Origin: Escherichia coli
Lineage (GTDB): Bacteria > Pseudomonadota > Gammaproteobacteria > Enterobacterales > Enterobacteriaceae
Length of the DNA stretch: 64,000 nt
Assembly: GCF_003991155.1 (NCBI RefSeq)
Contig: NZ_CP031293.1
Direction: 5' to 3' (one strand)
The notes under the pieces were generated by a model, which searched no databases, was not told the origin of the DNA, and saw only the letters and a program-made list of their open reading frames with translations. Below are positions 1,057 to 38,488 of the stretch, one piece after another (position 1 is the stretch's first letter; each line of letters opens with the position of its first letter). The position numbers and the translations under genes were made by a program.

Positions 1057-2520
1057 TTATTTACATGCATATAACCTTCTGAAATTACTATAACAGTGCT
1101 CGTTCTTACTACCACTACAACGTTGTTCATCATATTCAGCGATTAAAGTTCCAGATATATAACCAAACTGAGGGCTATACGTTGACCCCGGACAGGCACA
1201 TGTCCCTGTATCACTATTCGGTATTACACACTTATATCCAGATACTTGATCGGTTATTGTTATAAAAATACCTTTCAGGCCATCACCACTTGCTGTCTGC
1301 CATTTACCACTGACACACGATAACACTCGGCCTGTACTGTCTCGCCCCACCAGACCATTAGGCGTACATTTCGCATTTAACGTTGCCTGACCATTTAAAT
1401 GGAGATATTCACCTGCTTTGATCCTGCCAGTTGATTCAATTGTTCCATTGGATTTTATCGTTCCGGCGGTAAGATTACCTGACGCATAAATATTACCCGC
1501 ATTGTTCATGTAAGCTTTAACTGTTTTACCGGTTCCTACACCAACAGTCCCTGACGCATACAAGTCATAGGTGCGAACACCGCCAGCCCAGCCAGCTGGC
1601 AGATCGTTTGGATTAAGTCCGTTCGTGGCAATACGACTACCAAATCTCGCCAGACCTGTTGTTGAAAGCGTATTCAGATAAGTATCGGATTTTACCTTCA
1701 GGTTGTTGTTGATATTTACAGGACCATTAAGGGTAGATGTTCCACCCACAGTCAGATCTGATGCAACAGACGCATTACCCGTGGTTTTCAGTGCTCCGGT
1801 TGTTGTTGTCCCTGATGCCGTCATATCTTTGATGTTTTTGATGCTCTTACCACCAAGATTCAGATCACCCGTCATCGGCAACGTTCCATCACGGCGCAGA
1901 TAAACAGAATACATTGAAGAGTTATACCCCACGCGGTAAGCCAGCAATCCACCACCCGTAATATTGCTGTAGCTGTTAGAGTTCTCACTCCACTGACCAC
2001 CATAGCCGGAAGCTATCTTGGTGTTTCTGCTCATCCCACCATCAACACCTGCCGCCTGAACCGCTTTACCTAACAGGTCATAACGAATACGACCACCTTC
2101 TTCCCACGGGCTGGCGGTTGTTATAAGGCCGTTAATGACATAATCAGGCGCTGTTCCTGAACGCTTTAACACAATCTTATAGGATGCTTTTTGCGCGTTA
2201 GTTCCTGTATAGCCTACAGGCAACAGACCTTCATTAATTAACGTCTGGTAAGTGATTTCACAACCAGCAGCCGAACATGTTCTTGGCCCCGGATCGCTAC
2301 TTTGATTGTTGGATGATGACAGTGTGGAAATCTTGTCATATCGAATACTGATATAGCGGTTAACCGCTTCACCAAGCTGTTTAATCTGTGTTCCAACATT
2401 ATCTGCTAATACCGCTTCCTGATTGTTTCGCATATCCTGAAACTTCATAAAAGCGATAAGCGTTCCAATACCTAAAACAATACTGACTTCCAGTAAGGTA
2501 AATCCTTTATTCTTTATCAT
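1057..2520 (-). CDS. pilV: Type IVb minor pilin / tip adhesin, PilV-like
   Basis: N-terminus [17 protein letters not shown] matches the type IV prepilin processing/hydrophobic motif (G|FTLLE); large Gly/Thr/Ser-rich body as in R64-type PilV; GGAGA RBS before ATG at 2520; directly downstream of pilS. Confidence 0.65.
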
Positions 2521-2572
2521 AATTATCTCCCTGTTTTGGCAATAAGAAAGAAAAGGGCTTACGCCCTCTTCA

Positions 2573-3130
2573 TTAAATAGACGTGAAAACTAATGTATTA
2601 CTTGTGGCATTCGTACATGCTGCTGCCGTAGCTGCCACATCGAGTGTTCCTCCTGCGGCTTTAACAACCTTGGTTCCAACCGTGGTAATGTAGAAATTAC
2701 CTGCTGCCGCTGTCGCAATCTTCACACATTCCGCTGCTGGCACATTATCGTATGTGATAGTGAAAGAAGAGCCAGCCGCTGATGATGGTCCTGTAGCTGT
2801 AGCAGCCAGCGTCACATTACCTTTAAAGGCATTAATGGGTTTAGCTGCCGTTCCTGACCCACTTAACATATTGTCAGGGAAGATTTTTGCCTGAACAGCC
2901 ACAGTATTTGTCAGGCCAGTAAAGCTTGATGCCGACGTGTATAATGCTTTAACACCTGCCTGTATGGTGGCAATGTTATTGGATTCTGCCTGCGCTCTTT
3001 GTGAAGCCTGAACCTTGGGATAAACGATAAAAGCCGCTACCACTAATGCAGCAATGATGCCCAAAACAAGTAATAGTTCGAGTAGTGAGAAACCTTTCTT
3101 GCTTTTTCTTTTGTTATTTAATAAAACCAT
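2573..3130 (-). CDS. pilS: Type IVb major prepilin, PilS-like
   Basis: Long basic leader [13 protein letters not shown] followed by [16 protein letters not shown], characteristic of type IVb prepilins; GGAGA RBS 6 nt before ATG. Confidence 0.65.
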
Positions 3131-3525
3131 TATTATCTCCTTTTTTGTTTTAATGATAACTCCTGTTATAACGCTTCTCTCATATCTGGCAATAGAAAGA
3201 GCAAGATATATTTAACTCTATCTGACAGACGGATGAATTAAAAAAGGCAAAGATTTCTCTTTGCCTTCCGGGAGATTTAAAAACAACATTTGTTATCACT
3301 ACTACTGTCATTACTACTTCCTCATGGGATATTTATCATATCTGATAAAAAAGTAATAATGACGTTCACTACATAAAGATAAAAATTAACAGATTACTGG
3401 TCAAACAGAACGCATGATTGAAAAGGAAAAAATATTAATAAAGGATGATCCTGTGTTCTGTTCTTTTATATAGATAACAGATAATAATTAGATATCAATA
3501 CCTGAAGCAAAATAAATTTAGTTTT

Positions 3526-3831
3526 TTATTTTTGTCTTCCATCCATTTGCGCCAGAAACTTCCTGCCTGCTTTTATATACGTTATTTTTTCAATATCATT
3601 CAGGTCAGGAACTGAAAGCAAAATCCCCATAACGAGTTCTTTATCCACCTGTTCGATATCGCAATGCATAGCTTTAGCTACTTCCGCGCCAAGTATAATC
3701 TTTAGCCTTGTTTCAATTTTCTTTCGTTCTGATTTCTCCAGAGACTTAAGACGATTAAGTTCAAGCTGAGCAAAAGCAACCTTTTGCTTTAATGTTTTTT
3801 CTGTTCTTGATCTTTTACTTTCATCACTCAT
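3526..3831 (-). CDS. Hypothetical small coiled-coil protein; weak resemblance to TraD-like relaxosome accessory proteins
   Basis: ORF; start overlaps the stop of the upstream gene by 4 nt (ATGA-type coupling); motif RKKIETRLKIILGAEVAKA recalled as similar to Ti-plasmid TraD, from memory only. Confidence 0.35.
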   Translation of the reverse strand: MSDESKRSRTEKTLKQKVAFAQLELNRLKSLEKSERKKIETRLKIILGAEVAKAMHCDIEQVDKELVMGILLSVPDLNDIEKITYIKAGRKFLAQMDGRQK

Positions 3832-4193
3832 ACAACATCATCCTTACCCAAAAAATAGGCAAATACTTCATCCACGCCTTTCATGGCGAGAACATCACTG
3901 AACAGCAAAATAGACGTCGCCAGATTTCCCGCTTCATCTGATGGTATAGACCTAAAGAACTCCATCACTTCATCTTCCTCATGGTATCGTGTCATCGCAT
4001 CAACTTTTATTTGCCATTCACCAATAGCAAAAAGCGCTGCTTCAAAGCAGGACTGAAATCGTTCTATATCAGGGCCAAAATGATACGTTATTCCGTCTTT
4101 ATATTTCGCAATGAAAATTTCAGTAATTTTTTCATTACTGCTCTGAAGAATATGAGTATCAATAGTAAAAACATAGGCCAGTTGTGCATTCAT
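3828..4193 (-). CDS. Hypothetical protein, first gene of a two-gene overlapping operon
   Basis: Clean 121-aa ORF with AT-rich upstream region; no recognisable motif. Confidence 0.4.
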   Translation of the reverse strand: MNAQLAYVFTIDTHILQSSNEKITEIFIAKYKDGITYHFGPDIERFQSCFEAALFAIGEWQIKVDAMTRYHEEDEVMEFFRSIPSDEAGNLATSILLFSDVLAMKGVDEVFAYFLGKDDVV

Positions 4194-4497
4194 TTTTTAT
4201 CTCCTTTGGTTATCGAATATTATATTTAACTATCACCAAAGAGAAATGACGTCAAATTAATAAAGTATTAGATATTACAATAGGATGTTAATCCTAAATC
4301 TACAACCGAAAATATCCCTTGTAATTATCCTTAATTTAAAATATTAAGTCATATGCACAATAATTAGTGATTCACCTAATCCAAAATCATCAGTAATTAA
4401 GTTATCAAATGATACACATTATTCTAAAACTTCTTTTATCTATATCCTCCAACGTTTACAATGCATGATAGGCAACGATTAATCATAAGAGGTAATT

Positions 4498-5376
4498 ATG
4501 AATATTTTTAGTCTCATCACTGATCCTGATAATGCAGTTTATTTGACTTTAGATAAATTTTATAAAAAAACGCATAGACATTATCCCTATATTCAAAAGG
4601 TTAATGGAGAAACTAAAGCATACGCTTTATGCCCAAGATGTCACAATCCGGTCCTTTTGGTTAATAGAATAAATAATCAGACGGAATCAAAAACTTTATA
4701 TGCTAAGCATGTTAAACATGATGTAATGGGTATCGCATCATATTCTCAACAAGGTTATGATGATTGCTCACTTGCAAACCCAACAAATCTTGATGCAAAA
4801 ATCAAAAGAGATATTAATAATAAATCAAATAATGAAATAAAAGATGCTGTTAAAAATTATTTCGATCTACTTATATACTCAATTGAATCACATATAGGCA
4901 TCAATTTTTCTGATTCCGTTTTAGCTCAAATGCTTGAGGATTTCAACGCTTGTGATGGACACCAGTATAGAGCGATTAACTTATATAATTTACCGTTATC
5001 ATTTGTCTACATCGCAAATGCTCAGGATCTTTACGGTTGTAGAGTAAACGGAAAAATCAAAGAAAATATAGATAAAAACTCAGAATCATTTATAACATCC
5101 GGTACAGAACTTTATGATAAGAGCCTGTATTATGTTAATAGAAAGAAAGGCAGTCCTTATAATAAAATCCTGTTTTATTTCTCTAATCATACCATTTCGA
5201 CAGAAAATGATGATGAATCGGTAATGTTATATATTGTAGAAAAAAAACAGGATCAGACTATAGATTCAGCAAAAATACTCTATAAAGAAAAAATATATTT
5301 TGATGGCACATATTTTTTTAATACTATGAAAAAAAGAGCACGGCTAAACGATTTAGCAAAATCAATTATTCAATAG
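4498..5376 (+). CDS. Hypothetical protein with Cys/His motif (CPRCHNPV ... HVKHD), possible zinc-ribbon or HNH-like
   Basis: 292-aa ORF, very AT-rich, Lys/Asn-rich; divergent from the 3526-4193 operon. Confidence 0.45.
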   Translation: MNIFSLITDPDNAVYLTLDKFYKKTHRHYPYIQKVNGETKAYALCPRCHNPVLLVNRINNQTESKTLYAKHVKHDVMGIASYSQQGYDDCSLANPTNLDAKIKRDINNKSNNEIKDAVKNYFDLLIYSIESHIGINFSDSVLAQMLEDFNACDGHQYRAINLYNLPLSFVYIANAQDLYGCRVNGKIKENIDKNSESFITSGTELYDKSLYYVNRKKGSPYNKILFYFSNHTISTENDDESVMLYIVEKKQDQTIDSAKILYKEKIYFDGTYFFNTMKKRARLNDLAKSIIQ

Positions 5377-5379
5377 TAT

Positions 5380-5688
5380 TTATTCTGGAATGCTAATTAT
5401 TTTTGATAACGGCTGGTTTAATACCAGCTTTATCAAGTCGATAGATATTGATGATGTATCAAATTGTTCCAACTCATACTCTGCAAAAGGTAAATCGCCG
5501 ACCACTTTTATATTCCCCATTATCTTTCCCAGAATATCACAAAATTCTTGATCTGTTTTTGGTTTTTCAATCAATCCTAAATCCAGTAACTTTTGATATT
5601 CAAATAATGCTCTAAGTGTTGCATTTTCCCAAAAAGTAAATTCCTGAAAATATGTTCCGTCTTCATATCTAGATTTTCTAAACTCCAT
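5380..5688 (-). CDS. Hypothetical protein
   Basis: 102-aa ORF convergent with 4498-5376; no recognisable motif. Confidence 0.35.
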   Translation of the reverse strand: MEFRKSRYEDGTYFQEFTFWENATLRALFEYQKLLDLGLIEKPKTDQEFCDILGKIMGNIKVVGDLPFAEYELEQFDTSSISIDLIKLVLNQPLSKIISIPE

Positions 5689-5989
5689 TATATCTCCTTA
5701 TGTTAATTATTATACATGGAGTAATACAATTATTCTCATCAGTCAAATCATAAAATTATAATAAATTCCATGAGTGGGTAAAGCTCAGTAGAAAAATAAA
5801 ATAGTGCAACGCATGTGATAGTATTTACTAACCAAAAACATCTGACACTCTCCGCGTTACTTATTTTTGCGCATTCGTGATTTTATTTTCACCTATCAAT
5901 TTTTAACTCTATTTTTCAATCTCAACCTGTGAATTGTGCAACACATAACACTCTCTGTTTTATTGGTTTTTTTCATCAAATTTAGCTAT

Positions 5990-6036
5990 CCCGCCTTACG
6001 GCGGGAATAATTAATACCTCTTTTGCCCTTACGGGC
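5990..6036 (+). other. Candidate oriT: two GC-stem hairpins sharing a TTAC loop
   Basis: cccgcc-ttac-ggcggg (5990-6005) and gccc-ttac-gggc (6025-6036), about 300 bp upstream of the relaxase gene; relaxase genes usually sit next to their oriT. Confidence 0.3.
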
Positions 6037-6337
6037 CTTTTCTTTACTCTTTTTGTCCTGTGGATGTGAAACCTACACCTTTAATCCAGTTTGCGCCGCT
6101 TATTCCGGCGTATTATTTTACAACAATACATATATTTCGTATTAATTGATAAGAGGGGCATTTTACATTGGCTTATTTTCTTAAAGACAATGCCCACCTA
6201 TACACTGCGTAGCAGTGTGTGGGGTCTACCGACGGTTGCCTGCCGCAGGCTAAAAGCAAAACCAAGGTCAACGTCAACCCCGAAGTTTTTCTGACGAAAA
6301 ACTAACAGCAGCATTTATATTTGAGGTTATATTTTTA

Positions 6338-7819
6338 ATGGCGATTTTTCATCTGGATTTTAAAATTGTGAAACGAAGCGAAGGCATGACTTCTGTTGCG
6401 AAAGCTGCCTACCATGCCCGTACACGTATTACGGATGATCGCATTGGAGAAACATTTGATTTCAGCCACAGAACAGATCTTCATGGTCATATTATATTGG
6501 CACCTGTTTCCGCACCCTCTCATATTGTTGAAAGCTCCTCAACACTCTGGAATGAAGTTGAAAGAGTGGAACGCCAGAACAATGGTCAAACAGCCCGTTA
6601 TTTTGATGTCGCTATCCCCGTAGAACTCAGTAATGATGACAAGAAAAAATTGGTTGCTGAATACTGCCAGAAGAACTTTGTTGATAAGGGAATGATTGCC
6701 GATATCGCATTTCATGATTTAGACGGTAAAAATCCCCATGCTCACGTTATGTTAACCCTGAAAACTGTTGGTCCCGAAGGCTTCGGTAAAAAAGACAGAA
6801 GCTGGAATGATAAGAAGATAATGATCCAATGGCGTGAGTCATGGGCCACGATGTCAAACAGCTACCTTGAAGCTATTGGAAGTGAAGAACGTATCGATCA
6901 CCGTTCTCTCAGGACGCAATGTGCTGATGCCCTTACCCAAGCAGAAGAAGCATTCAGCGCTGAAGAGAAAGCATTCTGGCTTGCCAAGGCAACAGAAACA
7001 AACCGCCCGGCAATGCAGCGTGTTCATCGTGCTAAATGGAATAACACCGAGTCTCAGGAACAGCGAGCTGCTGAACAAGCTCAACGCGATCATCAAATTG
7101 AGGAAGCAAAGAAGGTCTACACTACATTCAGTGAGCTACCACTGGAAATCGTGGTTGATGTTCGCTCTTACTCTGTTTACCAGCTTCCTGAACCGGAAGA
7201 GATCGTTCTCCCTGACTTCCCAGCTACAACTAAACAGCAACCTGTTTCAGCGACACCAGCCATAAGCAGAAGACCAGCAGCAAAATCTTACCGTGATCCC
7301 AGTAAGGTCAGTAAAGTAAATGTTTCAGGGAAGAAATCCCCTGTTCTGGTTGCGCCTGAACCAACTGCATCCACTAAATTGAAAACCCCATCTCTTCAAA
7401 AAACCAGAGCGATGAACCGCGCTCCTGTGAGGAGTAGGAAACAGACCAAGCCCCGCCAGAATGGTTTGTTTAAACGTTTCACGCTACTGATAGTAGGATA
7501 TATAAGAGAGAAATTTATCTGGGCCAAAAGGAAAGCAGATACCACTGATGCTGACCATGACAAGCGTATCGCAGAGAACTATATCTATGATGAAGTGCTG
7601 GGTGTCAATGTTCCACGTTCGGAGTTTGAAAAACGTACCAAATTTAACAATGGTGACTATAAATTAACACCTGATGAAATCAAGCGTTTCCCAAGCCGTC
7701 CTAATCAGGAACAGCCGGAAGTTAATAGAAGCATAGATCTCACACCTTCAATGCCACCAGAACACATGAGGCAAGGAAGCGCGCCAAAACTGAGTCCACC
7801 GAGCCATAAGAGACATTAA
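6338..7819 (+). CDS. mobA: MobA/MobL-family (MOBQ-type) conjugative relaxase
   Basis: N-terminus MAIFHLDFKIVKRSEG...AAYHARTRI parallels RSF1010 MobA (MAIYHL...), with the histidine triad region HAHVMLT and IDHRSLRTQ; C-terminal half is low-complexity. Confidence 0.8.
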   Translation: MAIFHLDFKIVKRSEGMTSVAKAAYHARTRITDDRIGETFDFSHRTDLHGHIILAPVSAPSHIVESSSTLWNEVERVERQNNGQTARYFDVAIPVELSNDDKKKLVAEYCQKNFVDKGMIADIAFHDLDGKNPHAHVMLTLKTVGPEGFGKKDRSWNDKKIMIQWRESWATMSNSYLEAIGSEERIDHRSLRTQCADALTQAEEAFSAEEKAFWLAKATETNRPAMQRVHRAKWNNTESQEQRAAEQAQRDHQIEEAKKVYTTFSELPLEIVVDVRSYSVYQLPEPEEIVLPDFPATTKQQPVSATPAISRRPAAKSYRDPSKVSKVNVSGKKSPVLVAPEPTASTKLKTPSLQKTRAMNRAPVRSRKQTKPRQNGLFKRFTLLIVGYIREKFIWAKRKADTTDADHDKRIAENYIYDEVLGVNVPRSEFEKRTKFNNGDYKLTPDEIKRFPSRPNQEQPEVNRSIDLTPSMPPEHMRQGSAPKLSPPSHKRH

Positions 7820-11001: not shown

Positions 11002-11613
11002 CTATTTTTGTTTATATAAATCGTAGGAACTTAATTTTTTAGATTTCTCATAGGCATTTTCAATGTATAAAGATACATCTGCTAAAAATCGGTCTTCTTC
11101 TATCAATGAAATATAAGAACCAGTCAATTGATCATATGATTTGCACTCAGGGCAACAATATTTATCTTCTGAAGTTAAATTAAACCTATTATTATTAATA
11201 ATGTCATATAGTTCAGTTGTGTCAATAGTTCTTGATGAACATCCATCAGGCTTGATTGAAGAAGATACTAACCAGTCATAGCTATTATTAACCTTCATTA
11301 TCACACCAACAATGCCATTAGTTCGGGAAGTGGTTCCTCCTCTCTTGTATTCTTTCAATGCATATTCAATTTCCCAGTCAATCCATTTACTTTTAATCAT
11401 ATTCGGGGAAATAATAACGATTAAAACAGATGTCCCGAAAATCATATTTTTAAGATTGTTCTTTATATTATCTACTGTTGTATTACTTATATCAGGAGAC
11501 TCCGATGTTTCCCCTTTATAGTAAACAGCATCATCACCTAATGCCTTGACAATTTTGTCTCTTAAATCCTGTGCTTCACTATATTTATATGATATGAATG
11601 TTTCATGAGCCAT
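11002..11613 (-). CDS. thsB: Thoeris ThsB, TIR-domain protein
   Basis: N-terminal ETFISYKYSEAQ and WIDWEIEYAL are typical TIR-domain signatures; 16 bp downstream of thsA on the same strand. Confidence 0.8.
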   Translation of the reverse strand: MAHETFISYKYSEAQDLRDKIVKALGDDAVYYKGETSESPDISNTTVDNIKNNLKNMIFGTSVLIVIISPNMIKSKWIDWEIEYALKEYKRGGTTSRTNGIVGVIMKVNNSYDWLVSSSIKPDGCSSRTIDTTELYDIINNNRFNLTSEDKYCCPECKSYDQLTGSYISLIEEDRFLADVSLYIENAYEKSKKLSSYDLYKQK

Positions 11614-11629
11614 AACTTCACCTAATATA

Positions 11630-13066
11630 TTATTTATTCAGTTTGTTTATGATTTTTATTACAACTTCTATTGTTTTTTTTACCGAAAAATCTTTTTCAG
11701 TAAGCTCAGACAAATCATTATATATCCATTCATTACTTCCATAATATTTCTTAGGATCTTGTGATATTTGTTCAAATATATATTTAGACATATACCCGGT
11801 ATTGGGTAAAGGAATTGGTACAAGGCCATGTTGAACAGCAATCTCAAACTCTCTAAATACTCCCCTAGCATTTACTATATCATTATTTTCCTCTTGTTTA
11901 TTTCCAAAAATAAACAATGCAATACCACCAAGAGGAATCATTCTCTGTCTATACTCCTCCCAAAGTTCTTGAATATCTTTCCCCTTACTGACAGTTTGTG
12001 GAAATGGTCTAACAATGAGCTGTTCTTCTGATAATTTATCTGGCCTACTATAAATTGCATCCAACGCACCATTTATCACAGAACTTCCGACGCCCCATCC
12101 AAATCCATTCACTATCCTATAATTATTCTTTATAATCTCATATGCTAATGTGTGAATAAAATCTAATGCTTTAGGTCTTTCAAGATCCCCATATTTTTCT
12201 GCACTACCAGAAATAAATATCGTTTTCTTTTTAAATGATTGCTCTATCTTAGCTAGAATTTTAGGGATGTCAGAATATTCATCTATTAATAATACTTGTA
12301 TACCAAATCTCTTGAGATCATCGATTCGCAGTTTTTGTTTTCTGATCTTATAATTTACTGTTTCTTCATCATCTAGGGAATTATTAGCCTCATTCTTCAT
12401 AAAGCAATAGTGTGTCCTCTTGTCCCCAGAATGAGTATACAAACGACTCAAAATGTAATCCAGATTTGGGTCGGTAAAACTAAACCCTATGAATAGAAAG
12501 GTTTTTGATATTAAATCTCCGCTAAGTGCGGTGATAAATGAAGCGTGTGTTCTGTAGTATTTTTCATACTGCTCTTTATATAAAATAGCCTTGGATGGGG
12601 ACGAAATATCACCATGCATTTTATATACTATCGCGTCTCGCTTAGGTCGTGTTGTATTTAAATCATCTATGTTTCTTTTTACATCTGCAATTTTGTAAAC
12701 TTTCCGCAGACTATCTTCAATTAAAGTGTCATAGTTTGTTGTCCAAAATGTCTTAATCGGTAAACGAGCAATTATATTATGAACCTCTGATGGCTCGGCT
12801 TGCTCAGAAAACTCTTCGATTATCTTCCTTGTGAGTTTTGTAGCCCCTTTCTTTTCATTAACATGAAATTGAGCAAGCGATATTAGATCGTCTTCTTTAT
12901 TAATGTCTAAACTAAGCTCTTCTGCTATATCGCTAAGTAATTCTTTCCAATCAACATAACCTTGACTTTTAGACATTCCTGCGCCAGAAAAAATAGCAGC
13001 ACAATCATTTTCAAGATCTTTAACAAAATCTTTTATGAAAACTTCAATTTCATTACTAAACGTCAT
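11630..13066 (-). CDS. thsA: Thoeris ThsA, SIR2 (NAD-binding) plus SLOG domain protein
   Basis: From ATG at 13066 (GGAG RBS 9 nt upstream) the protein MTFSNEIEVFIKDF...AAIFSGAGMS...TTNYD...MHGD (SIR2) then IFISGSA...GFGWGVGSSVINGALD (SLOG) closely parallels Bacillus cereus ThsA as I recall it. Confidence 0.85.
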   Translation of the reverse strand: MTFSNEIEVFIKDFVKDLENDCAAIFSGAGMSKSQGYVDWKELLSDIAEELSLDINKEDDLISLAQFHVNEKKGATKLTRKIIEEFSEQAEPSEVHNIIARLPIKTFWTTNYDTLIEDSLRKVYKIADVKRNIDDLNTTRPKRDAIVYKMHGDISSPSKAILYKEQYEKYYRTHASFITALSGDLISKTFLFIGFSFTDPNLDYILSRLYTHSGDKRTHYCFMKNEANNSLDDEETVNYKIRKQKLRIDDLKRFGIQVLLIDEYSDIPKILAKIEQSFKKKTIFISGSAEKYGDLERPKALDFIHTLAYEIIKNNYRIVNGFGWGVGSSVINGALDAIYSRPDKLSEEQLIVRPFPQTVSKGKDIQELWEEYRQRMIPLGGIALFIFGNKQEENNDIVNARGVFREFEIAVQHGLVPIPLPNTGYMSKYIFEQISQDPKKYYGSNEWIYNDLSELTEKDFSVKKTIEVVIKIINKLNK

Positions 13067-13274
13067 TACACTTATCTCCATTTTAACTATTATTCCCAAA
13101 AGTAGAGAATAAACCTTTCAACCGGAGTTCATGAAACAGCATCTAAAAATATTCTGCCGGATACGAGTAAAATCATACTGGATATAAAAACAGTTGTCGA
13201 GAACTAAAACAATTGAAAACATGGCCAGATGGCATAGATAATATTACATACGAAAATTATTAACCAGATAATAT

Positions 13275-27841: not shown

Positions 27842-29197
27842 TTATTTCCCGACCCCTTTATCAATAATTGCCGTTTCCGGTAGAGAGTGATTTTTCAGCA
27901 ACAACCAGCGACTTAACACGCCGTCCAGCCGCTCGTTAATCTGTTTTTCCAGTACGTCGGTATTCTGCCCCTGCGCACGGGCGTCCTGGTACTGCGTCAG
28001 CAGCGACTCAACGGGTGTTTCCTGCCCCAGCCCCCGCTCCGCCTGCCAGATAACATTTTTGATGTAGGAAAGGGTTACCCCCTCTTTCTCACGTTTCATC
28101 ACGAGGTCTGCAAAGGCATGTAAGTCCTGGCGGGCCTGTAACCAGCCGCGTAACTGTGGACTACTCTGCGCACGAGTTTTCAGCGTCTCATTCCACTGTG
28201 CGGTGGCCTGCTGCTGTTGCAGACTCTCCGGCCAGCGGCTGTCGGCGGTACGCGCCATCTGTAAGCCCGTATTCAGCGGCTGAACAGGTGAAGCATCAAG
28301 GAGTTGCTGTAGCCTGCGCTCATAGTTTTCCAGCTCAGGCGACACAAGCCAGACTGTCGCAGCGCCCTGCGCGGTATCGCTGACCTGGGTGAGTTGTTGC
28401 TGCATGGGAGAGACCAGCCACCACCAGAGAGCGGCGGCAACAGCCCCGGAGCAGAGAACACCCGCGATAAAACCTTTCACCGCACTGCCCTGCTTTGCCA
28501 CACTGGTCGGTGGCGTACTGTCAGCCAGGCTGCGCACCTCCACCTTCATCTCCGGCAGTTCAGGCAGCGGCGGCATCACCGTTTCGGTTGCTGGCGTAAT
28601 ACCGTTTTCCGGGGCATAAATCAGCGTTCTGACCGTGGTCTGTGCGGTGTGTTCAACGCTGCTTTTCGGCTGCGGCTCAAGTCGTTTACGCGTGTTCTGA
28701 ACAAAATAAAGCAGGTTTTCCACGCGCGGCTGGCGCTTCAGTTCCACCTGCTGGAGCTTGTCACAGATAAGCTGTAGTGCCCGTTCCGTGCGATATAACA
28801 GAGGCAGGTCAGCCTCCACAAAGGATATCTGCTGGCGCAGGATATTCCCGGTGCGGGTGTTGAACCAGTCCAGCATCTCGGTCCGCGCCGGGCCGCCCTG
28901 CGGCCAGAAGTTATCCCACTCGTGAGTGACCATCGCCGCCAGCAATTCCGCCCCTTCGCAGAATCCCGCCAGCCCCTGTGTCCGGGTCCGGGCCAGCGTG
29001 TAGTAGGTGGCGGTATGCAAATCCACCCCGTTGGCCTTAAATATCGCCAGCGCCAGCGACTCCACCAGTTTCCAGTTCAGCTCCGGCTGCGACGGGTGGC
29101 TGGCCTTGTTGATTTCCTCGCGGATGGCGCTGAACTCTGGCAGGCCACGCGGGTCACTGCCGGTAACGATAGTTTGTGTCAGTACGTTATTGCTCAT
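27842..29197 (-). CDS. vasL: T6SS-associated protein VasL-like (ImpA N-terminal domain, TM segment)
   Basis: From ATG 29197: MSNNVLTQTIVTGSDPRGLPEFSAIREEINKASHPSQPELNW is the ImpA_N signature; internal hydrophobic segment; last core-cluster position as in the Vibrio cholerae vas cluster. Confidence 0.6.
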   Translation of the reverse strand: MSNNVLTQTIVTGSDPRGLPEFSAIREEINKASHPSQPELNWKLVESLALAIFKANGVDLHTATYYTLARTRTQGLAGFCEGAELLAAMVTHEWDNFWPQGGPARTEMLDWFNTRTGNILRQQISFVEADLPLLYRTERALQLICDKLQQVELKRQPRVENLLYFVQNTRKRLEPQPKSSVEHTAQTTVRTLIYAPENGITPATETVMPPLPELPEMKVEVRSLADSTPPTSVAKQGSAVKGFIAGVLCSGAVAAALWWWLVSPMQQQLTQVSDTAQGAATVWLVSPELENYERRLQQLLDASPVQPLNTGLQMARTADSRWPESLQQQQATAQWNETLKTRAQSSPQLRGWLQARQDLHAFADLVMKREKEGVTLSYIKNVIWQAERGLGQETPVESLLTQYQDARAQGQNTDVLEKQINERLDGVLSRWLLLKNHSLPETAIIDKGVGK

Positions 29198-29207
29198 CCC
29201 TGTCTCC

Positions 29208-32200
29208 TCAGTACAGCGTGTCCGACAGCCTGAACTGGCTGAAAAGCCCGCCACTGAATGGATTGTCCTCGGTGTCAGCGTGTATCCTGTAGACCATCGC
29301 GCCACCGTCCACGTTAAACCGCACGCTGAATGTCCCTGCCTCAACGCTGGTTAACTGCCCTGCCCCGAACAGGCGGAACTGCGCCCACGGCCCGGTGAAA
29401 CGGATGCTGCGCGGCGCTCCGCCGCTGACACCTATCAGCGTCAGTTTGCTTTCATTGCCTTCCCGCATATTGTTCGGCCACACCAGGTGGGCGGTATAGT
29501 TGCGGCCCTGGCTGTAATCGACTAACTGACCGTCGAGGTTCAGTACACTGCGCCGTTTGTTGCCGGAGAGCGATACCGTTTCCACCGCAAACTGCGTTCC
29601 CAGACCGTTTTGTTTACTGAAGAAGATGTCGCGAATCTTCTGCGCAGTATCCAGTTGCCGGATGATGTCCTCACGGATAATCACCCCGTCATCGCCATCA
29701 CGGCTCAGGTCATTTTCAATAAACAGTTTCAGGTTCTGCTGCCAGAATGTGTCCAGTACGCCATCCGGTTTAAAGAAACGCTCAAACGCATCCAGTGAGG
29801 CATCCTGCGCCGAGCGCGGATTAAACGGATAGTTACCGGCAAGCTGTTCATTGAACGGTTTCACCACGTTGTCACGCCAGTCAATTTCCATATAGTGAAC
29901 GGCCTCCACCATCACCACATGCCAGGCCTGGTCGGCCAGCTTGCCCACCCAGCGGTTAAGTGGCGCGGGCAGGGTTTTCGCCATCTGGCGGGTGGCGAAT
30001 ATCGGGTCGCTACTGTTCTGGTCCAGACGTAGCTGGACGGCTTTCAGCGCCGATTTCCCCGGCACCGGCGCGTTCTGGATCGCCAGCAGATAGCGGTGCA
30101 GTTCCGTTAACTGCTGGTACACCGCCTGCATGGTACTTTCTTTGTCCTTCTGCACCGCGAGCGTACTGTTTTCCGGGGCGAATTCATGCCCGAGGCGCGT
30201 CAGCAGGCGGTAGTCCGGCTCCGCCAGCGCGTCCTCCCGTTCTTTATCAGAGAGTTTTTCAGAGAGTACCGCAGGCTGCGTGTTATCACGCAGGGCAGTC
30301 AGCGCCCGCTGAAGTGGCTGGTCACCACTGATAATCTGCTCCAGCGCACCGGTCAGTTGCGCAATGGATTCATAATCCCGGACGTTCAGGTTATCCATCC
30401 CGGCCCGCCAGGTGGCGGTGTAGTCGCTGAGATACTGTTCAGTCAGCTGGCGCTGGATCTCTGTCTGGTCAGCGTCGCTGTATTTCACGCTGCGGGTGAG
30501 GTTGAGTACCCAGGAATCCATCGCCGTCAGTTCAACCAGTTCATCGCGCTGCTTCACAAAGTAGCTTTGCAGGCCGTAACGGGTGAGAAACTGCGGAACA
30601 ACCAGTTTGTTGTCATCGGCAGACGTGAACACCTGCTCAAAGGTCGGCCCCACCTGGTCACGCAGGTTAAGGTCAGCAGGCAGTACGCCCAGTGCCCGCG
30701 TTTTCAGGCTCTGGTAAACCCGCTGGTAGACAGGCAGTTTGCTCAGTTCTTTCTGTGCTGACACAACGGGCTTGTCATACGGCATCCAGCGGCTGATGGC
30801 GTCACCGTCACCCGCCTGACGCTCTGCGTGCCAGTCCGTGTGCGCCAGCGCGTAGTCAAGATGAGACATCAGTTGCGCCTGGATATCGCGCTGGCCGTGG
30901 AACTTTTCGCTCCAGCGTTTTGCCATATACTGCTTTACGACCTCATTATTACGTCCGCTTTTATCCTCCAGCATTCGCATCACGCGCAGCACAGCGAGTT
31001 TTTCCTCGCTCTCCGGCGGCGCGGCGTTCATCTCTTTGACCAGCCCGTTAAACAGGGCAGGCAAATAACGCTGCTCCAGCAGTTGCAGGTAGGTCTGCTC
31101 CACATACGGCCCGACACGCCGCCCCTGGTATAACCCCATATCCGCCAGGCGGCTGCGGTCGCCCCAGTCGCCATAAGCAAGAGTGGCATCACGTACCGGG
31201 TTCAGCAGCGGCAGTTGCAGGTTGCCATAGTCATCCATCCCCTGCGGGGGCGTGATATCCATAAACGCTTTCGCCTGCTTCAGCACCAGGACGCCGGAGG
31301 CATAGTTGTCATTGTAATAATGGTGCCAGCCGGTGATTAACAGCAGCGCCGCCACGCCGCCCGTTGCGGAAAAGGCGGTCAGGCGGCGGCGACTGCTGGT
31401 CAGCCAGGTCCGGCTCTCCGTTGCCAGGTTAGGCTCTGCCAGTAATGCCTGCGGGAACAGGTTGCGGGTGAAATACGGCGTGGTATCCACCAGCGGCCAG
31501 GCCGTCAGCGGACTGCTGCCCAGCCGGTACTGGCGGGCGGCGGACTGGGTAAAGATGTCATCCATCTGGCCGCGTTGCAGTGACGAGGTGAGATAGACGC
31601 CGCGCAGCATGACGTCCATGTTTTCGCCATCCAGCAATCCATCCAGCAGCGCCACCAGGGATTCCCGGCTTCCCTGCATCTGGCGGGCAAAGCTGAACAG
31701 GGAGCCACGCATATGGCTCTGCGCCAGCATCAGATCCGGCAGCGCCTGGTTCATTCGGTCACACCACGACTGCCAGAAGGCATTAAGTTCGCTTCGCCAG
31801 TCCTCGTTTTCATGGGCACGACGGGTGAACGTGACGCCCAGAATGGTGTCACGATCTTTTTTATCCAGTGACTGAAACAGCGTGGCAAAACCATGCAGCA
31901 GATCCAGCCGGGTCAGCACCACATAGACCGGCAACTGGCAGTGAAGCTGCTGGCGTACATCCTGGAGGCGGCTGCGCAGCGTCTGTAGCAGATACTCACG
32001 GCGGCGCTTGTCGGCGGTCAGCAGGTCAGGTAAATCGAGGGTCAGAATGAGCCCGTTCAGCGGCTGACGGGCGCGCTTCTCTACCAGCCAGCCCAGGGCA
32101 TGTTCCCATAACCGGCGGTGCAAAACATTTGCATCCGGCTGTTCACAGAGCGAGCCATCAATATCGAATATCACCGCCTGTTGCCCGACATGCGGGATGA

Positions 32201-32729
32201 GATACAGGCGCGGCTCCGCCCCACGCACCGCTTCGGGGATATAAATTATGTCAGACGGAAAACCCTCGCGCAGCAGTGTCGTTTTGCCACTGCCCGCCGG
32301 ACCGATAACCATATACCAGGGCAACTGCCACAGGTAGCGGCGGTTGTCGAGATGGCGTTGCAGGCGCAGTAACCAGCGGTCGAGGTAACGCTGCTGGGCG
32401 TTCAGCTCCACGCTGAGCGGATCAACGGCCTCTTCGCGCTGCTGTTTTTGCTGTTTTTCAAGCTGTTGCAGGCGCTTCATTACCCGGACAGTAAGCCACA
32501 CCAGGGCAATAATCCCCCATGCTGCCGTTGCCAGCCAGCGGTTAGCCAGTGGTTTGAGCCACTGTTCTTCATACAGCGTCCACGTCGGGCCTTTCCACCA
32601 GATCCACACCAGCAGGAAAATCCACGCCAGTATCAGCAGCCAGAATGCAGAAACCTTAAACCGGGGCATCGCCGGGCGCAGGGCTGATTTGAGTCCGCTG
32701 AATAGTCGGGGTGTTGGTAATCTGAACAC
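29208..32729 (-). CDS. tssM: T6SS membrane complex protein TssM (IcmF)
   Basis: 1173 aa; N-terminal TM helices, Walker A GPAGSGKTT; GTG start with AGGAG RBS. Confidence 0.9.
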   Translation of the reverse strand: MFRLPTPRLFSGLKSALRPAMPRFKVSAFWLLILAWIFLLVWIWWKGPTWTLYEEQWLKPLANRWLATAAWGIIALVWLTVRVMKRLQQLEKQQKQQREEAVDPLSVELNAQQRYLDRWLLRLQRHLDNRRYLWQLPWYMVIGPAGSGKTTLLREGFPSDIIYIPEAVRGAEPRLYLIPHVGQQAVIFDIDGSLCEQPDANVLHRRLWEHALGWLVEKRARQPLNGLILTLDLPDLLTADKRRREYLLQTLRSRLQDVRQQLHCQLPVYVVLTRLDLLHGFATLFQSLDKKDRDTILGVTFTRRAHENEDWRSELNAFWQSWCDRMNQALPDLMLAQSHMRGSLFSFARQMQGSRESLVALLDGLLDGENMDVMLRGVYLTSSLQRGQMDDIFTQSAARQYRLGSSPLTAWPLVDTTPYFTRNLFPQALLAEPNLATESRTWLTSSRRRLTAFSATGGVAALLLITGWHHYYNDNYASGVLVLKQAKAFMDITPPQGMDDYGNLQLPLLNPVRDATLAYGDWGDRSRLADMGLYQGRRVGPYVEQTYLQLLEQRYLPALFNGLVKEMNAAPPESEEKLAVLRVMRMLEDKSGRNNEVVKQYMAKRWSEKFHGQRDIQAQLMSHLDYALAHTDWHAERQAGDGDAISRWMPYDKPVVSAQKELSKLPVYQRVYQSLKTRALGVLPADLNLRDQVGPTFEQVFTSADDNKLVVPQFLTRYGLQSYFVKQRDELVELTAMDSWVLNLTRSVKYSDADQTEIQRQLTEQYLSDYTATWRAGMDNLNVRDYESIAQLTGALEQIISGDQPLQRALTALRDNTQPAVLSEKLSDKEREDALAEPDYRLLTRLGHEFAPENSTLAVQKDKESTMQAVYQQLTELHRYLLAIQNAPVPGKSALKAVQLRLDQNSSDPIFATRQMAKTLPAPLNRWVGKLADQAWHVVMVEAVHYMEIDWRDNVVKPFNEQLAGNYPFNPRSAQDASLDAFERFFKPDGVLDTFWQQNLKLFIENDLSRDGDDGVIIREDIIRQLDTAQKIRDIFFSKQNGLGTQFAVETVSLSGNKRRSVLNLDGQLVDYSQGRNYTAHLVWPNNMREGNESKLTLIGVSGGAPRSIRFTGPWAQFRLFGAGQLTSVEAGTFSVRFNVDGGAMVYRIHADTEDNPFSGGLFSQFRLSDTLY

Positions 32730-32747
32730 AAAAACTCCTGTTCTCTT

Positions 32748-34175
32748 TTATTGTTCTGCCGTGAATTTTTGTTCAAGCTGTTCAAGTAACGATGGCTCCC
32801 AGTCGGCCACCATCATTTGCAACCCCATCCTGAACAACATCCGGTACTGCTGCTGCGCAAGCTGTACCAGCCCCGCCTCTTCCGTCAACTGGGCGGCAAG
32901 GTACTGGCGGTGAAACTGATCGCGGGGATCGCCTTCGGGTAGCATGTCCAGATACCGCAGCGCCGCCTCCAGCCCCTGCTCAGCAAAACAGGCCCTGGCC
33001 GCCTGCGATTCCTCACCGGCCTGCGCAACCGGTGCCACTTTGCAGTCGGGCGAAGCGGACAGCCATTGTTTCGTCTGCTCACTGATAAACGGTGTGCGGT
33101 CATTAAACAGCAGCCCGGTAAGCTGGGGCAGGCGCTCAAGGAAGCGGGTGACCTCATCGCGGATGGCGTCTGCCACCTGTTTGTAACCCAGGCGCAGTGC
33201 CGTCTGTGCAGAAAGGCAGTGACCGTCCAGCCAGTAAGGAGCCAGCAGTACGCTTTTCTCCACCTGCTGCCACAGCGCCATATCCGCGCTGGCAAGCCGG
33301 GACTGGTAATCCGCCACCATATCGGCAGAAACCGCAGCCAGCGGGGTGCGTCCATCGCTTTCCACCTGGGGTGTACTGGTGATGTTCTGCCACAGCGCAT
33401 GGCGGCGCAGACGGTAGCCCTGCGGTGAGTCCGGCTGGCGTTCACATAAAATGGCCGCCACTTTTAACAGCGTGTCACGCCAGGCTTTGTCGTCGTGACT
33501 GTCAACCGTAACCTGGGGGGCCGGGACGGCAGGCGCCGTACTGGCGTTTTGCGAAGCAGCGGATACGGGAGCAGCAACGGTTTGCGCCAGTGTGCCGGTA
33601 TTTGCCGGAGAGGCCGGTGACACGGGCGCAGTACCATTAAACGCGCGCTGGTACAGGGCAAAAAGATCATCCGTCGCCTGTGCCAGTTCCGGGACGTTAT
33701 GCGACTGCCAGCACTGCGCCAGCTTTGCCAGTTCCCCCAGCAGCGCATCGCGCTGTGCCGTGGCTGCACTTTCCGCAAAAGACGTGACGCCCGCCTCAAA
33801 ACGTTTTATCACCTGACTGGCAAAGCGTTTTTTATGCGCCATATTCTGCGGCGCGGCCACCGCCCAGTAATGCTCCACATACAGCGCCAGCAGGCGCAAG
33901 GCCAGGAGCGGATCACCGGCATGTTGCAGGGTTCTCAGCAGATGCGCCAGCAGGCGAAAATCCTTACTCTCCGAAGCCAGAAGGACCAGCCCCCGGTGCT
34001 GGAGTTCAGGGATATCCAGCTGGCTGTGCGCCAGCGATCCCAGCTTGACAATCCCACCGTCGATATACTCCCAGTCCGGGTTATCGTCCTTCAGCGCTGA
34101 TGCCAGTTTCTCTTCCGGCAGGTTTTCCAGCAGGTGCGATACCCAGACATTCGGATCGCGTAAGTCCATTGCCAT
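32748..34175 (-). CDS. tssA: TssA-family protein (VasJ-like)
   Basis: Position between vasI-like gene and tssM; Ala/Pro-rich linker; GGGAGA RBS before ATG 34175. Confidence 0.6.
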   Translation of the reverse strand: MAMDLRDPNVWVSHLLENLPEEKLASALKDDNPDWEYIDGGIVKLGSLAHSQLDIPELQHRGLVLLASESKDFRLLAHLLRTLQHAGDPLLALRLLALYVEHYWAVAAPQNMAHKKRFASQVIKRFEAGVTSFAESAATAQRDALLGELAKLAQCWQSHNVPELAQATDDLFALYQRAFNGTAPVSPASPANTGTLAQTVAAPVSAASQNASTAPAVPAPQVTVDSHDDKAWRDTLLKVAAILCERQPDSPQGYRLRRHALWQNITSTPQVESDGRTPLAAVSADMVADYQSRLASADMALWQQVEKSVLLAPYWLDGHCLSAQTALRLGYKQVADAIRDEVTRFLERLPQLTGLLFNDRTPFISEQTKQWLSASPDCKVAPVAQAGEESQAARACFAEQGLEAALRYLDMLPEGDPRDQFHRQYLAAQLTEEAGLVQLAQQQYRMLFRMGLQMMVADWEPSLLEQLEQKFTAEQ

Positions 34176-34179
34176 ATTT

Positions 34180-34923
34180 TTATTCTCCCGCCCAGTGGCA
34201 GGCATCGCGCAGGGGTGCAATCGCCCCTGCCAGCCCGTCAATGTTAAAGGTCAGCTTTCCGGCGGCGTTGTCTGCGCCGGTATCCACCGTCAGCGTTTTT
34301 GCGCCAAATAACTGTTTAATTTCATCAATACCGGATAACCCCCGGCTGGACTCCAGCAGGGTGCCGTTCTCGCGTACAAACCAGTGGCTGCGTAATGCCC
34401 GGCTGTCAGCATTCAGGGTAACGGCGATATCATGGACATCCAGAGGGTGCATCAGCGCCACCTGCATCCGGGTAATATTGTCCACGCAACTGAACATCAG
34501 CACCGGGCGCGGCGGAACATGGCCGATAGCCGGGGTGGTTATCACCACCGTCGGGCGTTCCCCCGGCACCTGCGTCACCAGCAGCTCCGTGGTGTTGCCC
34601 TGGCGGCGTTTTTCCTGCTCTGTGGCGCGGGTCCAGGCTTCGCCCACAAAACCAGCTTTGACCAGCGCCCCGTCAAACCCTGACGGGGACAGCGGTTCCA
34701 GCAGGCGGTCATAGCAGTCAAGCCGCTCCAGCGCCGCAGACTCCCGCCGACAGGACTGCATGGCCTGTAACGTGGCTGTCGCATCCGGCGGTGTCGCTGT
34801 GGCGACAGCTACTGCCACACCGGCCATTGACGATGTTTCTGCGGGCGCGGCACTGGCGGGTAAGCCCGCCATCAGGCCCGCGATAAACCATCCTGTCTGC
34901 CGGAAAACGCGCAACCTGCTCAT
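34180..34923 (-). CDS. T6SS-associated secreted protein (VasI-like by position)
   Basis: Signal peptide FIAGLMAGLPASAAPA; start overlaps clpV stop (ATGA). Confidence 0.45.
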   Translation of the reverse strand: MSRLRVFRQTGWFIAGLMAGLPASAAPAETSSMAGVAVAVATATPPDATATLQAMQSCRRESAALERLDCYDRLLEPLSPSGFDGALVKAGFVGEAWTRATEQEKRRQGNTTELLVTQVPGERPTVVITTPAIGHVPPRPVLMFSCVDNITRMQVALMHPLDVHDIAVTLNADSRALRSHWFVRENGTLLESSRGLSGIDEIKQLFGAKTLTVDTGADNAAGKLTFNIDGLAGAIAPLRDACHWAGE

Positions 34924-37658: not shown

Positions 37659-37669
37659 ATATTGTGTCC

Positions 37670-38488
37670 TTACCTGGCGAGCAGCCGGTTCAGTTGATGC
37701 AGAATATCCTGCGTCTGACTGTCCAGACGCAGCATGTAGAACAGATAAAACAATGCCAGTACCACCACGCCCCCCATCAGAACATGCTTTATGGTCAGGC
37801 GTTTCATTAACTGATAGCGCCCGCCCTGGGTCTTTTTGTCCTGGTGCAGTAATGGGAAGGGGGCATCGCCACGCAACGTATGCAGGACGTGGTGCAGACG
37901 GCGGTAGATCCGCTCAAACTCCCCCTGATCCTGGACGGCCACTTTGTAGCGCCCGCGAAATCCCAGCGAAAAACAGATAAAGATAAACTCCAGCAGATCC
38001 TGGTAGCGTTTTGGCTCACGGATCAGGCGCTCCAGCAGGATGAAGACCTTCTCCCCCCCCCAGGCTTCATTGTGGAAATGGACCAGCAGCGACTGTTTGA
38101 TCCACTCATTCTTGTTCGACCAGCCGTTACCCAGCGCAGCCTCATCGATAAAAGTGCACAGAACATAGCGAAAAGAGACGATCACGCCAGGCTCATAGCC
38201 CTGCTCCTGGAGTAACTGCTCCACTGCCTGAACGTCGGTCACAACCTGTGCAAAAAGATGTTCCGGCATGGTCTGACTGTTCATCCCGTCCAGGCGCATC
38301 ACCATCCCCAGTAACGGCGTGGCGGCATCGATCATCGGGTTCAGACTGTTACCGCGCAGGGGCAACCGGTACTGGCGGCTGGAAATATCGCCATCGCTGT
38401 CCGGCACCACGGTACTCTGCCTCTCCGGTATATTCCCCATAGCCAGATATTCATTTTCACCGGCTGGCAGGATGAACGGATCGTTCAT
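37670..38488 (-). CDS. tssL: T6SS TssL (DotU family)
   Basis: DotU-like cytoplasmic domain and C-terminal TM helix (VVVLALFYLFYML). Confidence 0.8.
   Translation of the reverse strand: MNDPFILPAGENEYLAMGNIPERQSTVVPDSDGDISSRQYRLPLRGNSLNPMIDAATPLLGMVMRLDGMNSQTMPEHLFAQVVTDVQAVEQLLQEQGYEPGVIVSFRYVLCTFIDEAALGNGWSNKNEWIKQSLLVHFHNEAWGGEKVFILLERLIREPKRYQDLLEFIFICFSLGFRGRYKVAVQDQGEFERIYRRLHHVLHTLRGDAPFPLLHQDKKTQGGRYQLMKRLTIKHVLMGGVVVLALFYLFYMLRLDSQTQDILHQLNRLLAR

Follow-up and report, generated by a model that had tools for sequence, protein, structure and literature searches.

The window (the whole 64,000-nucleotide stretch analysed) comes from an Escherichia coli chromosome. In the RefSeq annotation of an identical locus, a tRNA-Ser gene stands beside int, pilV, a pilin gene and genes for TraD, MobQ and H-NS paralogues. 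This gene content agrees with the description of EARL (PMC6035254), whose core includes TraD and a MobA/MobL relaxase. A P4-like integrase, a type IV pilin and pilus protein, TraD together with a MobA/MobL relaxase, one or more H-NS paralogues and an adjoining tRNA gene are all present and, judged by them, the island is an EARL (ROD21-like) integrative mobilizable island. On the same comparison the serU/tcpC island of CFT073 is a sibling, with approximately 90-95% identity in the parts common to both. One sibling island carries a retron-type reverse transcriptase. The relaxase gene of the MobQ (MobA/MobL) family, mobQ, occupies positions 6338-7819 on the plus strand; its assignment draws on the RefSeq annotation, on PF03389 in the homologous gene of a related locus (L009) and on the published EARL core (PMC6035254). 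Upstream of mobQ lies a candidate origin of transfer, an oriT-like segment (6182-6271) with an inverted repeat (6197-6208/6212-6223), which on its own matches Yersinia and Klebsiella plasmids as well as many further E. coli chromosomal sites. A scan of positions 3100-6400 against Rfam returned no RNA family.

Four open reading frames lie ahead of this segment, and on the strength of homologues of the 292-, 102- and 121-aa products across wide identity ranges they are real genes, not chance reading frames. The traD-like gene (3526-3831, minus strand) encodes a basic protein of 101 residues (pI 9.6), named 'conjugal transfer protein TraD' in RefSeq. The TraD-like motif noticed in the preliminary description reflects a genuine family match: residues 35-94 align with positions 2-61 of the 62 in Pfam model PF06412 (TraD, E=1.4e-10), and the protein matches phrog_24342, labelled function unknown in PHROGs, at E=2e-50. 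The gene neighbors oriT and the MOBQ-type relaxase gene; in sibling islands approximately 645 bp separate traD from mobQ, and in the window an accessory cassette comes between the two. By these matches the 101-aa protein is a true member of the TraD family and traD an EARL core gene, with SEN1979/SEN1980 as its counterparts in ROD21. The product is presumed to be a relaxosome accessory protein; such a role is more reasonable than defence because the protein is TraD-like and its gene is placed among the transfer genes of a mobilizable island. This part of the locus is ordinary and confirms a known type of mobilizable island.

Upstream of traD, the gene at 3828-4193 (minus strand) encodes an acidic protein of 121 residues (pI 4.4). 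The 4-nt overlap already reported between the two genes is present: plus-strand tcat at 3828-3831 reads ATGA on the minus strand, combining the stop codon of the 121-aa gene with the start codon of traD, and from this arrangement the 121-aa gene is translationally coupled to traD. Its homologues, in 12 clusters whose source names are E. coli and Salmonella only, range from 95% to 50% identity; the gene is optional and lineage-restricted, being observed in Enterobacteriaceae alone. O111:H8 carries a 116-aa version, 50% identical, upstream of traD; CFT073 and ROD21 lack the gene and keep traD. The proposal of a relaxosome-accessory pair thus holds for the TraD half, but the 121-aa gene is no fixed companion of it. 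Searches of Pfam (even at E≤10), NCBIfam and PHROG assigned the 121-aa protein to no family, whether TraC, MobC or another, and its match to AbiJ in PADLOC is weak and at chance level (E=0.042).

A divergent intergenic region of 26% GC (4194-4497) separates the 121-traD operon from the gene for the 292-aa protein. Within it, at about 4259, falls the left junction of the accessory cassette (approximately 4259-5792, 1.53 kb, 29% GC), which contains the 292-aa and 102-aa genes and is inserted between the traD operon and oriT-mobQ. The breakpoints were placed by blastn against CFT073, O111:H8 and 21KM1392, the left one also by alignment. The site is empty (approximately 40 bp) in O111:H8 8B and CFT073, and in 21KM1392 it is filled by another cassette, which encodes a hydrophobic protein of 200 residues. 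Taking at least 80% query coverage as presence, the cassette occurs in 114 of the 786 E. coli genomes that carry the region. From this comparison of occupied and empty sites, the interval between the traD operon and oriT-mobQ is a cargo hotspot of the tcpC/ROD21 island family. Next to the 44-45% GC of pilV, pilS and mobQ, the cluster is as AT-rich as first described, and the suspected foreign origin holds both for the island and for the cassette, which is optional within it. A promoter and terminator scan gave promoter-like matches only, at a frequency not above shuffled expectation.

Could all four genes be core relaxosome accessory factors needed for mobilization of the island? They are placed between TraD and oriT-mobQ, and genes of the 292-aa family often stand beside relaxase and T4CP genes elsewhere. 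However, most sibling islands, including those of CFT073 and Nissle 1917 and ROD21 itself, retain traD-oriT-mobQ without the 121-, 292- and 102-aa genes, and ROD21 is reported to transfer (PMC3976249), which leaves a shared core role very improbable.

The 292-aa gene (4498-5376, plus strand) encodes a basic protein (pI 8.5) in which Asn and Lys each make up 9.6% of residues, in line with the enrichment noted before. The recorded motifs are there as well, with CPRCHNPV at 45-52 and HVKHD at 71-75, and the invariant residues of its family are C45-x2-C48...H71...C90 followed by N164-L-P166. Among 146 representatives, C45 is conserved in 99% and C48, H71 and C90 in 100%; the sole positions conserved at 99-100% are C45, P46, C48, H71, C90, N164 and P166. 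H49, H74 and D75 vary among relatives, so that the Cys/His residues named in the preliminary description are kept in homologues only in part, and no conserved acidic catalytic residue occurs in the 146 representatives. The four conserved ligands form a Cys2-His-Cys site that probably binds structural zinc. The suggestion of a zinc ribbon therefore survives as a probable metal site, but not as the canonical two-knuckle fold: there is one CxxC knuckle only, H71 and C90 are 19 residues apart, and the matches of the family to zinc-ribbon DUF models are weak and non-significant.

The same residues, a CxxC motif followed by histidines with four Cys/His positions invariant, could point to a nuclease of the HNH-like or zinc-ribbon type. 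An HNH nuclease is largely refuted by the variability of H49, H74 and D75, by Pfam, which detects neither HNH nor any other family in the 292-aa protein and 100 relatives, and by structure: the AF2 model is confident (pLDDT 86.8, pTM 0.79) and matches no fold among PDB structures. As a whole, the nuclease reading is considered extremely improbable.

The family proves to be large. It comprises at least 556 clusters (50% identity clusters, E≤1e-3), with homologues from 88% down to approximately 22% identity in Proteobacteria and Firmicutes, from enterobacteria to Enterococcus and Lactobacillus, and its members are basic (median pI 8.9). Pfam, NCBIfam, PADLOC and PHROG hold no model of it. A family profile run against PDB sequences returned only eIF5, at a noise level of E=0.38. 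Scans of all four proteins against PADLOC, NCBIfam and PHROG gave nothing beyond phrog_24342 for TraD and chance-level matches, in PADLOC-DB to pAgo_II (E=0.018) and the AbiJ model already mentioned. An NCBIfam scan of ten distant relatives and partners produced two chance-level matches, far below the cut-off, in one partner. The C-terminal extension of a 580-aa fusion protein (P0065) matched nothing in PDB or PADLOC, and a literature search by protein accession found no publication.

Genomic context was compared across 25 loci; a search for related loci with one alignment of the family (A1) returned five. In the window, the large gene converges with the gene for the 102-aa protein (5380-5688, minus strand), the two stop codons lying 3 nt apart. 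The range covered by the preliminary description took in this gene, but its conserved partnership with the 292-aa gene went unnoticed there. The 102-aa product is acidic (pI 4.6) and predicted to be mostly alpha-helical; its homologues extend from 86% to approximately 20% identity and, in databases, track those of the 292-aa protein. A small acidic partner (pI 4.2-5.5) adjoins the large gene in 19 of the 25 loci. Type A partners are convergent and abut or overlap the large gene in six lineages (E. coli, L009, Pectobacterium, Lonsdalea, Pseudomonas plasmids and Providencia), and type B partners, in 13 lineages, are usually upstream of the large gene and overlap it. Since hhalign shows no relation between the two types, a common origin is not claimed; the type B alignment also matches nothing in Pfam. 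Across lineages the identities of large protein and partner fall together (88/86, 73/62, 70/65, 49/39, 38/24 and 44/22%), so that the small and large genes appear as a neighboring, co-inherited pair. No partner is detectable in the remaining six loci, which counts against the explanation favored below. Small upstream ORFs in two loci (L007 and L014) were considered as partners and rejected as unrelated. An AF2 prediction of both proteins as one chain (292 aa, a 30-residue GS linker and 102 aa, with nine paired rows) gave helices for the 102-aa protein at pTM 0.57 and pLDDT 69 and, judged without PAE, no sign of docking.

Members of the family lie within or beside conjugation genes (relaxase, T4CP, T4SS, TopoIII, SSB, ArdC) in 17 of the 25 loci, and 33 of 44 plasmid matches fall on plasmids that are conjugative or mobilizable; the 50,697 phage records yielded one match, a partial one. 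In Gram-negative as in Gram-positive bacteria, the family is specialised to elements that are conjugative or mobilizable. In the window, in L009 and in the Pseudomonas, Providencia and IncK2/Z loci, the transfer genes form a block that runs in one direction, and the large gene alone is antisense within it. Several elements harbor, antisense inside a tra operon, a gene whose product has a fold without a solved relative. The copies in Lonsdalea and Pectobacterium show no such antisense placement relative to neighboring genes, a further point against the favored explanation. The Lonsdalea copy adjoins a methyltransferase/ATPase gene set. Within each plasmid backbone the distribution of the large gene is sporadic, which suits selfish cargo of a generic kind no less than a role in transfer.

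Such surroundings invite the view that the cassette acts on DNA during conjugation, in establishment, anti-defence or competition between plasmids (for example fertility inhibition). The family recurs beside genes for TopoIII, SSB, ArdC, ProQ/FinO, H-NS and LPD7 relaxases, typical of establishment modules, the cassette adjoins oriT in the island, and the sporadic occurrence resembles that of anti-restriction and fertility-inhibition genes. Strand orientation argues otherwise. The tra genes of F-type and IncK2/Z plasmids are on one strand and the large gene is on the other; if textbook F polarity applies, its sense strand would be the transferred strand and early transcription from incoming single-stranded DNA would be impossible. 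Leading-region expression of that kind is accordingly judged unlikely. Furthermore, in L028 the large gene is downstream of the relaxase gene and not with those for ArdC and TopoIII, and similarity to known anti-defence proteins is absent. This view is regarded as unlikely.

A somewhat better case can be made for a type II toxin-antitoxin or abortive-infection-type defence module, with the 292-aa protein as effector and the small acidic protein as antitoxin, both travelling on mobile elements as cargo of a selfish or defensive kind. The likeness to type II modules lies in a compact two-gene unit, borne by mobile elements, that encodes a small acidic and a larger basic protein, in the small gene upstream of and overlapping or abutting the large one in 13 lineages, as in classical toxin-antitoxin operons, and in partner families that are exchanged while the large protein is kept. 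The cassette is also optional and sits at a hotspot, its island carries Thoeris and a sibling island a retron-type RT, and the gene set next to the Lonsdalea copy would suit defence. In contrast to such modules, the pair is convergent in the clade of the window, being operon-like only in the type B clades, and the six loci with no detectable partner are hard to square with an unchecked toxin. Neither a known toxin fold nor a catalytic motif or conserved catalytic residues were found in the 292-aa family, PADLOC gave no match, the family is nearly missing from phages and prophage-type records, and its strong bias is to transfer-gene neighborhoods rather than generic defence islands. A toxin-antitoxin or defence function is thus possible, at perhaps one chance in four.

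The explanation we favor, with moderate confidence, is that two unrelated things adjoin in this transfer module: a core traD, with its optional 121-aa gene, and an optional 1.53-kb conjugation-linked cassette that encodes a binder held in check by its partner. The 292-aa protein would lack enzymatic activity and act in connection with transfer, by binding DNA or else a protein involved in transfer or establishment; the acidic 102-aa partner, presumably by binding the larger protein, would restrain its activity. Because the 3' ends of the two convergent genes touch or overlap in this clade, transcription that comes from the side of oriT and passes through the partner gene into 121-traD-pilS-pilV would run antisense over the 292-aa gene. 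The 292-aa protein might then be produced as long as the transfer genes are off, and antagonised once they are expressed. More tentatively, and with the chances clearly against it, the CCHC protein and its acidic partner may represent an unrecognised class of conjugation-coupled two-gene switch shared by Gram-negative and Gram-positive mobile elements, in which the partner is expressed with the transfer genes and the large protein acts when transfer is off. In such a switch the large protein could inhibit competing elements, guard the resident element or act as a transfer-linked addiction factor.

The cassette exposes a large family (at least 556 clusters) missed by Pfam, NCBIfam, PADLOC and PHROGs, together with a confidently predicted structure that has no solved relative. 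Widespread and closely linked to conjugation, the family is a concrete and cheap target. Its candidate roles concern transfer control, competition between elements and the establishment or stability of the mobile DNA, plasmids and islands alike, by which genes for virulence and resistance spread. For the tcpC/ROD21 island family, the comparison additionally defines the traD-oriT interval as a hotspot for cargo.

How does the locus compare with known systems? CoiA has an N-terminal CxxC...H...C stretch that looks similar to the motif of the 292-aa protein, and two of the relatives in AFDB are labelled CoiA-like or 'Competence protein'. However, the Pfam models of CoiA match neither the 292-aa protein nor any of 100 family members and the conserved nuclease residues were not found in the family, so that homology to CoiA is not established.

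The traD gene resembles that of Agrobacterium Ti-type plasmids. The family model (PF06412) is matched almost end to end, and the window gene is likewise small, encodes a basic protein and diverges from a MOBQ-type relaxase gene with the presumed oriT between them. Differently to Ti TraD, the window protein is longer at its N-terminus (101 residues against a 62-position model), the gene upstream is not a detectable traC as in the traCDG operon, and no coupling-protein gene (traG in Ti) comes after traD, because the island is mobilizable and not self-transmissible.

The island also resembles the EARL elements PAI-CFT073-serU (the tcpC island) and Salmonella ROD21, with which it shares the P4-type integrase, type IV pilin, PilV, TraD, MobA/MobL relaxase, H-NS paralogues and adjoining tRNA gene. 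It differs from these siblings in that its traD-oriT interval contains the 121-aa gene and the 292/102 cassette, and from the tcpC island in having Thoeris, in place of TcpC, downstream of mobQ.

The four genes, encoding the TraD-like protein (101 aa; 3526-3831, minus strand), a 121-aa protein (3828-4193, minus), a 292-aa protein (4498-5376, plus) and a 102-aa protein (5380-5688, minus), are borne out by the ORF list and the sequence, as is the ATGA overlap joining the first two. All four are real genes, since homologues were found at graded identities. The latter two are carried by a segment with a GC content of 29%, compared with 44-45% in the neighbouring pilV, pilS and mobQ, and blastn against sibling islands places its breakpoints at about 4259 and 5792. 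The same site is empty (about 40 bp) in E. coli O111:H8 and CFT073, while in E. coli 21KM1392 this hotspot, located between the traD operon and oriT, is occupied by a different cassette of 0.97 kb, which encodes a 200-aa hydrophobic protein (3166-3768 of locus L025) with no family match. At least 80% of the region is covered in 114 of the 786 E. coli genomes having it, most of the others showing the CFT073-type traD-oriT-mobQ arrangement. The 292-aa and 102-aa genes make up a separate, optional cassette in a cargo hotspot, one that the core transfer module of the island does not need.

The 292-aa protein has no match in Pfam, NCBIfam, PADLOC or PHROG and no known fold was found for it. A word-indexed search retrieved 12 clusters, and a profile search of 1.84 billion representatives retrieved 556 at E ≤ 1e-3 (397 of them at E ≤ 1e-10). 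A Pfam scan of 100 diverse members revealed no relevant family, the single match at E ≤ 0.001 being that of one member to DUF3741. Foldseek against AFDB50 gave 118 relatives, nearly all “uncharacterized”; the labels CoiA-like, restriction endonuclease or transposase borne by a few of them find no support in the Pfam scan. The family is basic (median pI 8.9), and one member, P0065 (580 aa), has about 290 extra residues fused at its C-terminus, a helical extension with no PDB or PADLOC match.

The CPRCHNPV and HVKHD motifs of the preliminary description are present in this Asn/Lys-rich protein (the two residues make up 19%). When 146 full-length representatives were aligned to the family profile, the conserved ligand-type positions were C45 (99%), C48, H71 and C90 (100% each), accompanied by N164 (100%), P166 and P46 (99% each), P51 (97%), N50 and A43 (95% each), T25 (93%), P30 (91%) and H231 (88%). 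This conservation pattern supports well a structural Cys2-His-Cys metal site at C45/C48/H71/C90, so the metal site proposed earlier is probable, with other residues than those first picked out: H49, H74 and D75, to which the motif owed its HNH-like look, vary among relatives. No acidic residue is strongly conserved among the 146 representatives either; conservation supports no nuclease active site, of HNH or other type, and the suggested HNH-like nuclease is rejected.

The 102-aa gene is convergent with the 292-aa gene, the stop codons lying 3 nt apart. Five further lineages have the same convergent pair (type A), its 3′ ends overlapping there by 6 to 99 nt: a Klebsiella/Enterobacter-type EARL island (L009), Pectobacterium (L012), Lonsdalea (L002), Pseudomonas syringae-group plasmids (L005, L006, L015) and a Providencia F-type plasmid (L016). 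Partner identity falls from 86% to about 22% in parallel with that of the large protein, so the two are inherited as a unit. In distant clades the partner is replaced by a different small acidic protein (type B) with the motif EFSLxLSxVLxCLxIAExEGYVPxLxxxWW, duplicated in some, whose gene usually lies just upstream of the large gene, overlapping or abutting it. The 13 lineages with type B include Enterococcus, Lactiplantibacillus, Brochothrix, Vibrio, Shewanella, Plesiomonas, Brucella, Tritonibacter, gut metagenome contigs and an E. coli IncK2/Z plasmid, where it is convergent. At locus L030 (641-2906), two paralogous large genes flank one convergent small gene with two copies of the type B motif. 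Both types are acidic, type A being predicted to be mostly helical, and profile-profile comparison detected no relation between them; six loci have no detectable partner gene. AF2 modelling of the 292-aa and 102-aa proteins as a fused chain gave no docking signal (pTM 0.57, pLDDT 69). A toxin-antitoxin or abortive-infection module ranks second among the readings of such a pair, and we consider it unlikely.

The family is biased to conjugation loci. By tblastn it occurs on 44 plasmids, 33 of them conjugative or mobilizable, and among 50,697 phage records only one has a match, which is partial and shares its record with recombinases and a T4SS-like gene. Conjugation genes surround or adjoin the family gene at 17 of the 25 independent loci with usable flanks. 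It lies inside an F-type tra operon, in the pilI-pilL interval of an IncK2/Z plasmid, between TrbM-T4CP and TopoIII-SSB on Pseudomonas plasmids, inside Gram-positive T4SS operons, and beside MOBQ-, MOBP- and MOBF-type relaxases; topoisomerase III adjoins it in eight lineages. A T4CP-TrbM-TopoIII-SSB backbone is shared by two P. syringae-group plasmids whose versions of the module differ, as do the positions: in one (L005 10001-11182) a type A convergent pair lies between TrbM and TopoIII, and in the other (L033 4682-6085) a type B set comes after SSB, flanked on either side by partner-like genes. The gene is sporadic within each backbone (it was found on only two IncK2/Z plasmids, for instance) and is therefore accessory, yet transfer or establishment modules are its recurrent location. 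A role in establishment, anti-defence or fertility inhibition ranks third and is improbable, more so than a toxin-antitoxin or abortive-infection module. In Lonsdalea britannica, what resembles a defence or restriction-type system stands directly upstream of the cassette (L002, 6274-9977); its four genes encode an HTH protein, an N6/N4 DNA methyltransferase, an AAA_23/AAA_21 ATPase and a 204-aa protein.

The reading ranked first, a transfer-linked binding protein controlled by its partner, has about an even chance of being right as a whole. C45, C48, H71 and C90 would bind zinc, and the protein would act by binding and not by catalysis, since invariance is limited to these ligands and one Asn-x-Pro motif; the acidic partner would antagonise or modulate it. 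In the window, in L009 and on the Pseudomonas, Providencia and IncK2/Z plasmids, the large gene is the only antisense gene in a long co-directional transfer block, with which the partner gene is co-directional. Within the convergent clade, a transcript running through the partner gene into the transfer genes could oppose expression of the large gene, a detail to which we give far lower odds than to the reading as a whole. The cassette, an uncharacterised module of two genes drawn from a large dark family, merits modest experimental follow-up.

A 3.1-kb region of the locus is 100% identical to E. coli chromosomes. In strain 2016C-3878 the locus is flanked by zinT and tRNA-Ser, and the gene order is integrase, VOC protein, PilV, type IV pilin, TraD, three hypotheticals and MobQ relaxase, followed by TIR and SIR2 proteins, RepL, H-NS paralogues and an AlpA-like HTH protein. 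This is the architecture of an EARL island. Such Enterobacteriaceae-associated ROD21-like islands are excisable and mobilizable, and their conserved core comprises a type IV pilin and pilus protein, a MobA/MobL relaxase and TraD homologue, and a P4-like integrase with an RDF (PMC6035254). The pilus genes (1057-3130, minus) are limited to a PilS/BfpA-like type IV pilin and a PilV tip adhesin, with no pilus-assembly genes in the annotation of the identical locus; the two products may refit the thin pilus of an IncI-type helper plasmid, influencing recipient choice. An oriT-like segment (6182-6335) contains an inverted repeat (6197-6208/6212-6223). It is found alone, at 82-96% identity, elsewhere on E. 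coli chromosomes and on plasmids of Yersinia and Klebsiella, and may be an origin of transfer common to several elements. After the island comes a block with a GC content of 54-61% (about 28000-44000), probably another, unrelated island; in L001, whose locus is identical, a tRNA-Asn and a second integrase lie about 18 kb downstream of the cassette. The EARL island also carries a complete type I Thoeris system (11002-13099, minus), with ThsB (TIR; 11002-11613, minus; PADLOC E = 2.6e-85) and ThsA (SIR2-STALD; 11630-13099, minus; E = 8.9e-203).

The TraD operon represents biology already known. The 101-aa protein aligns to 60 of the 62 positions of the Pfam TraD model (PF06412; E = 1.4e-10), so the motif described as TraD-like was correctly recognised, and the protein also matches end to end a PHROG of unassigned function; family membership and position make it reasonable to regard it as a putative relaxosome accessory. 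The 121-aa protein is strongly acidic (pI 4.4) and has no Pfam, NCBIfam or PHROG match, PADLOC returning one chance-level AbiJ match; its homologues form only 12 clusters, with E. coli and Salmonella as named sources. CFT073, Nissle and ROD21 lack the gene, and the O111:H8 strain has a 116-aa version (50% identity) upstream of traD, separated from it by 5 nt with no overlap. The gene is therefore an optional upstream member of the operon. It stands where Ti plasmids have TraC, with no detectable homology to that protein. The island as a whole is a sibling of the tcpC-bearing serU island of CFT073, in which tcpC stands downstream of mobQ, where the window's island carries Thoeris.
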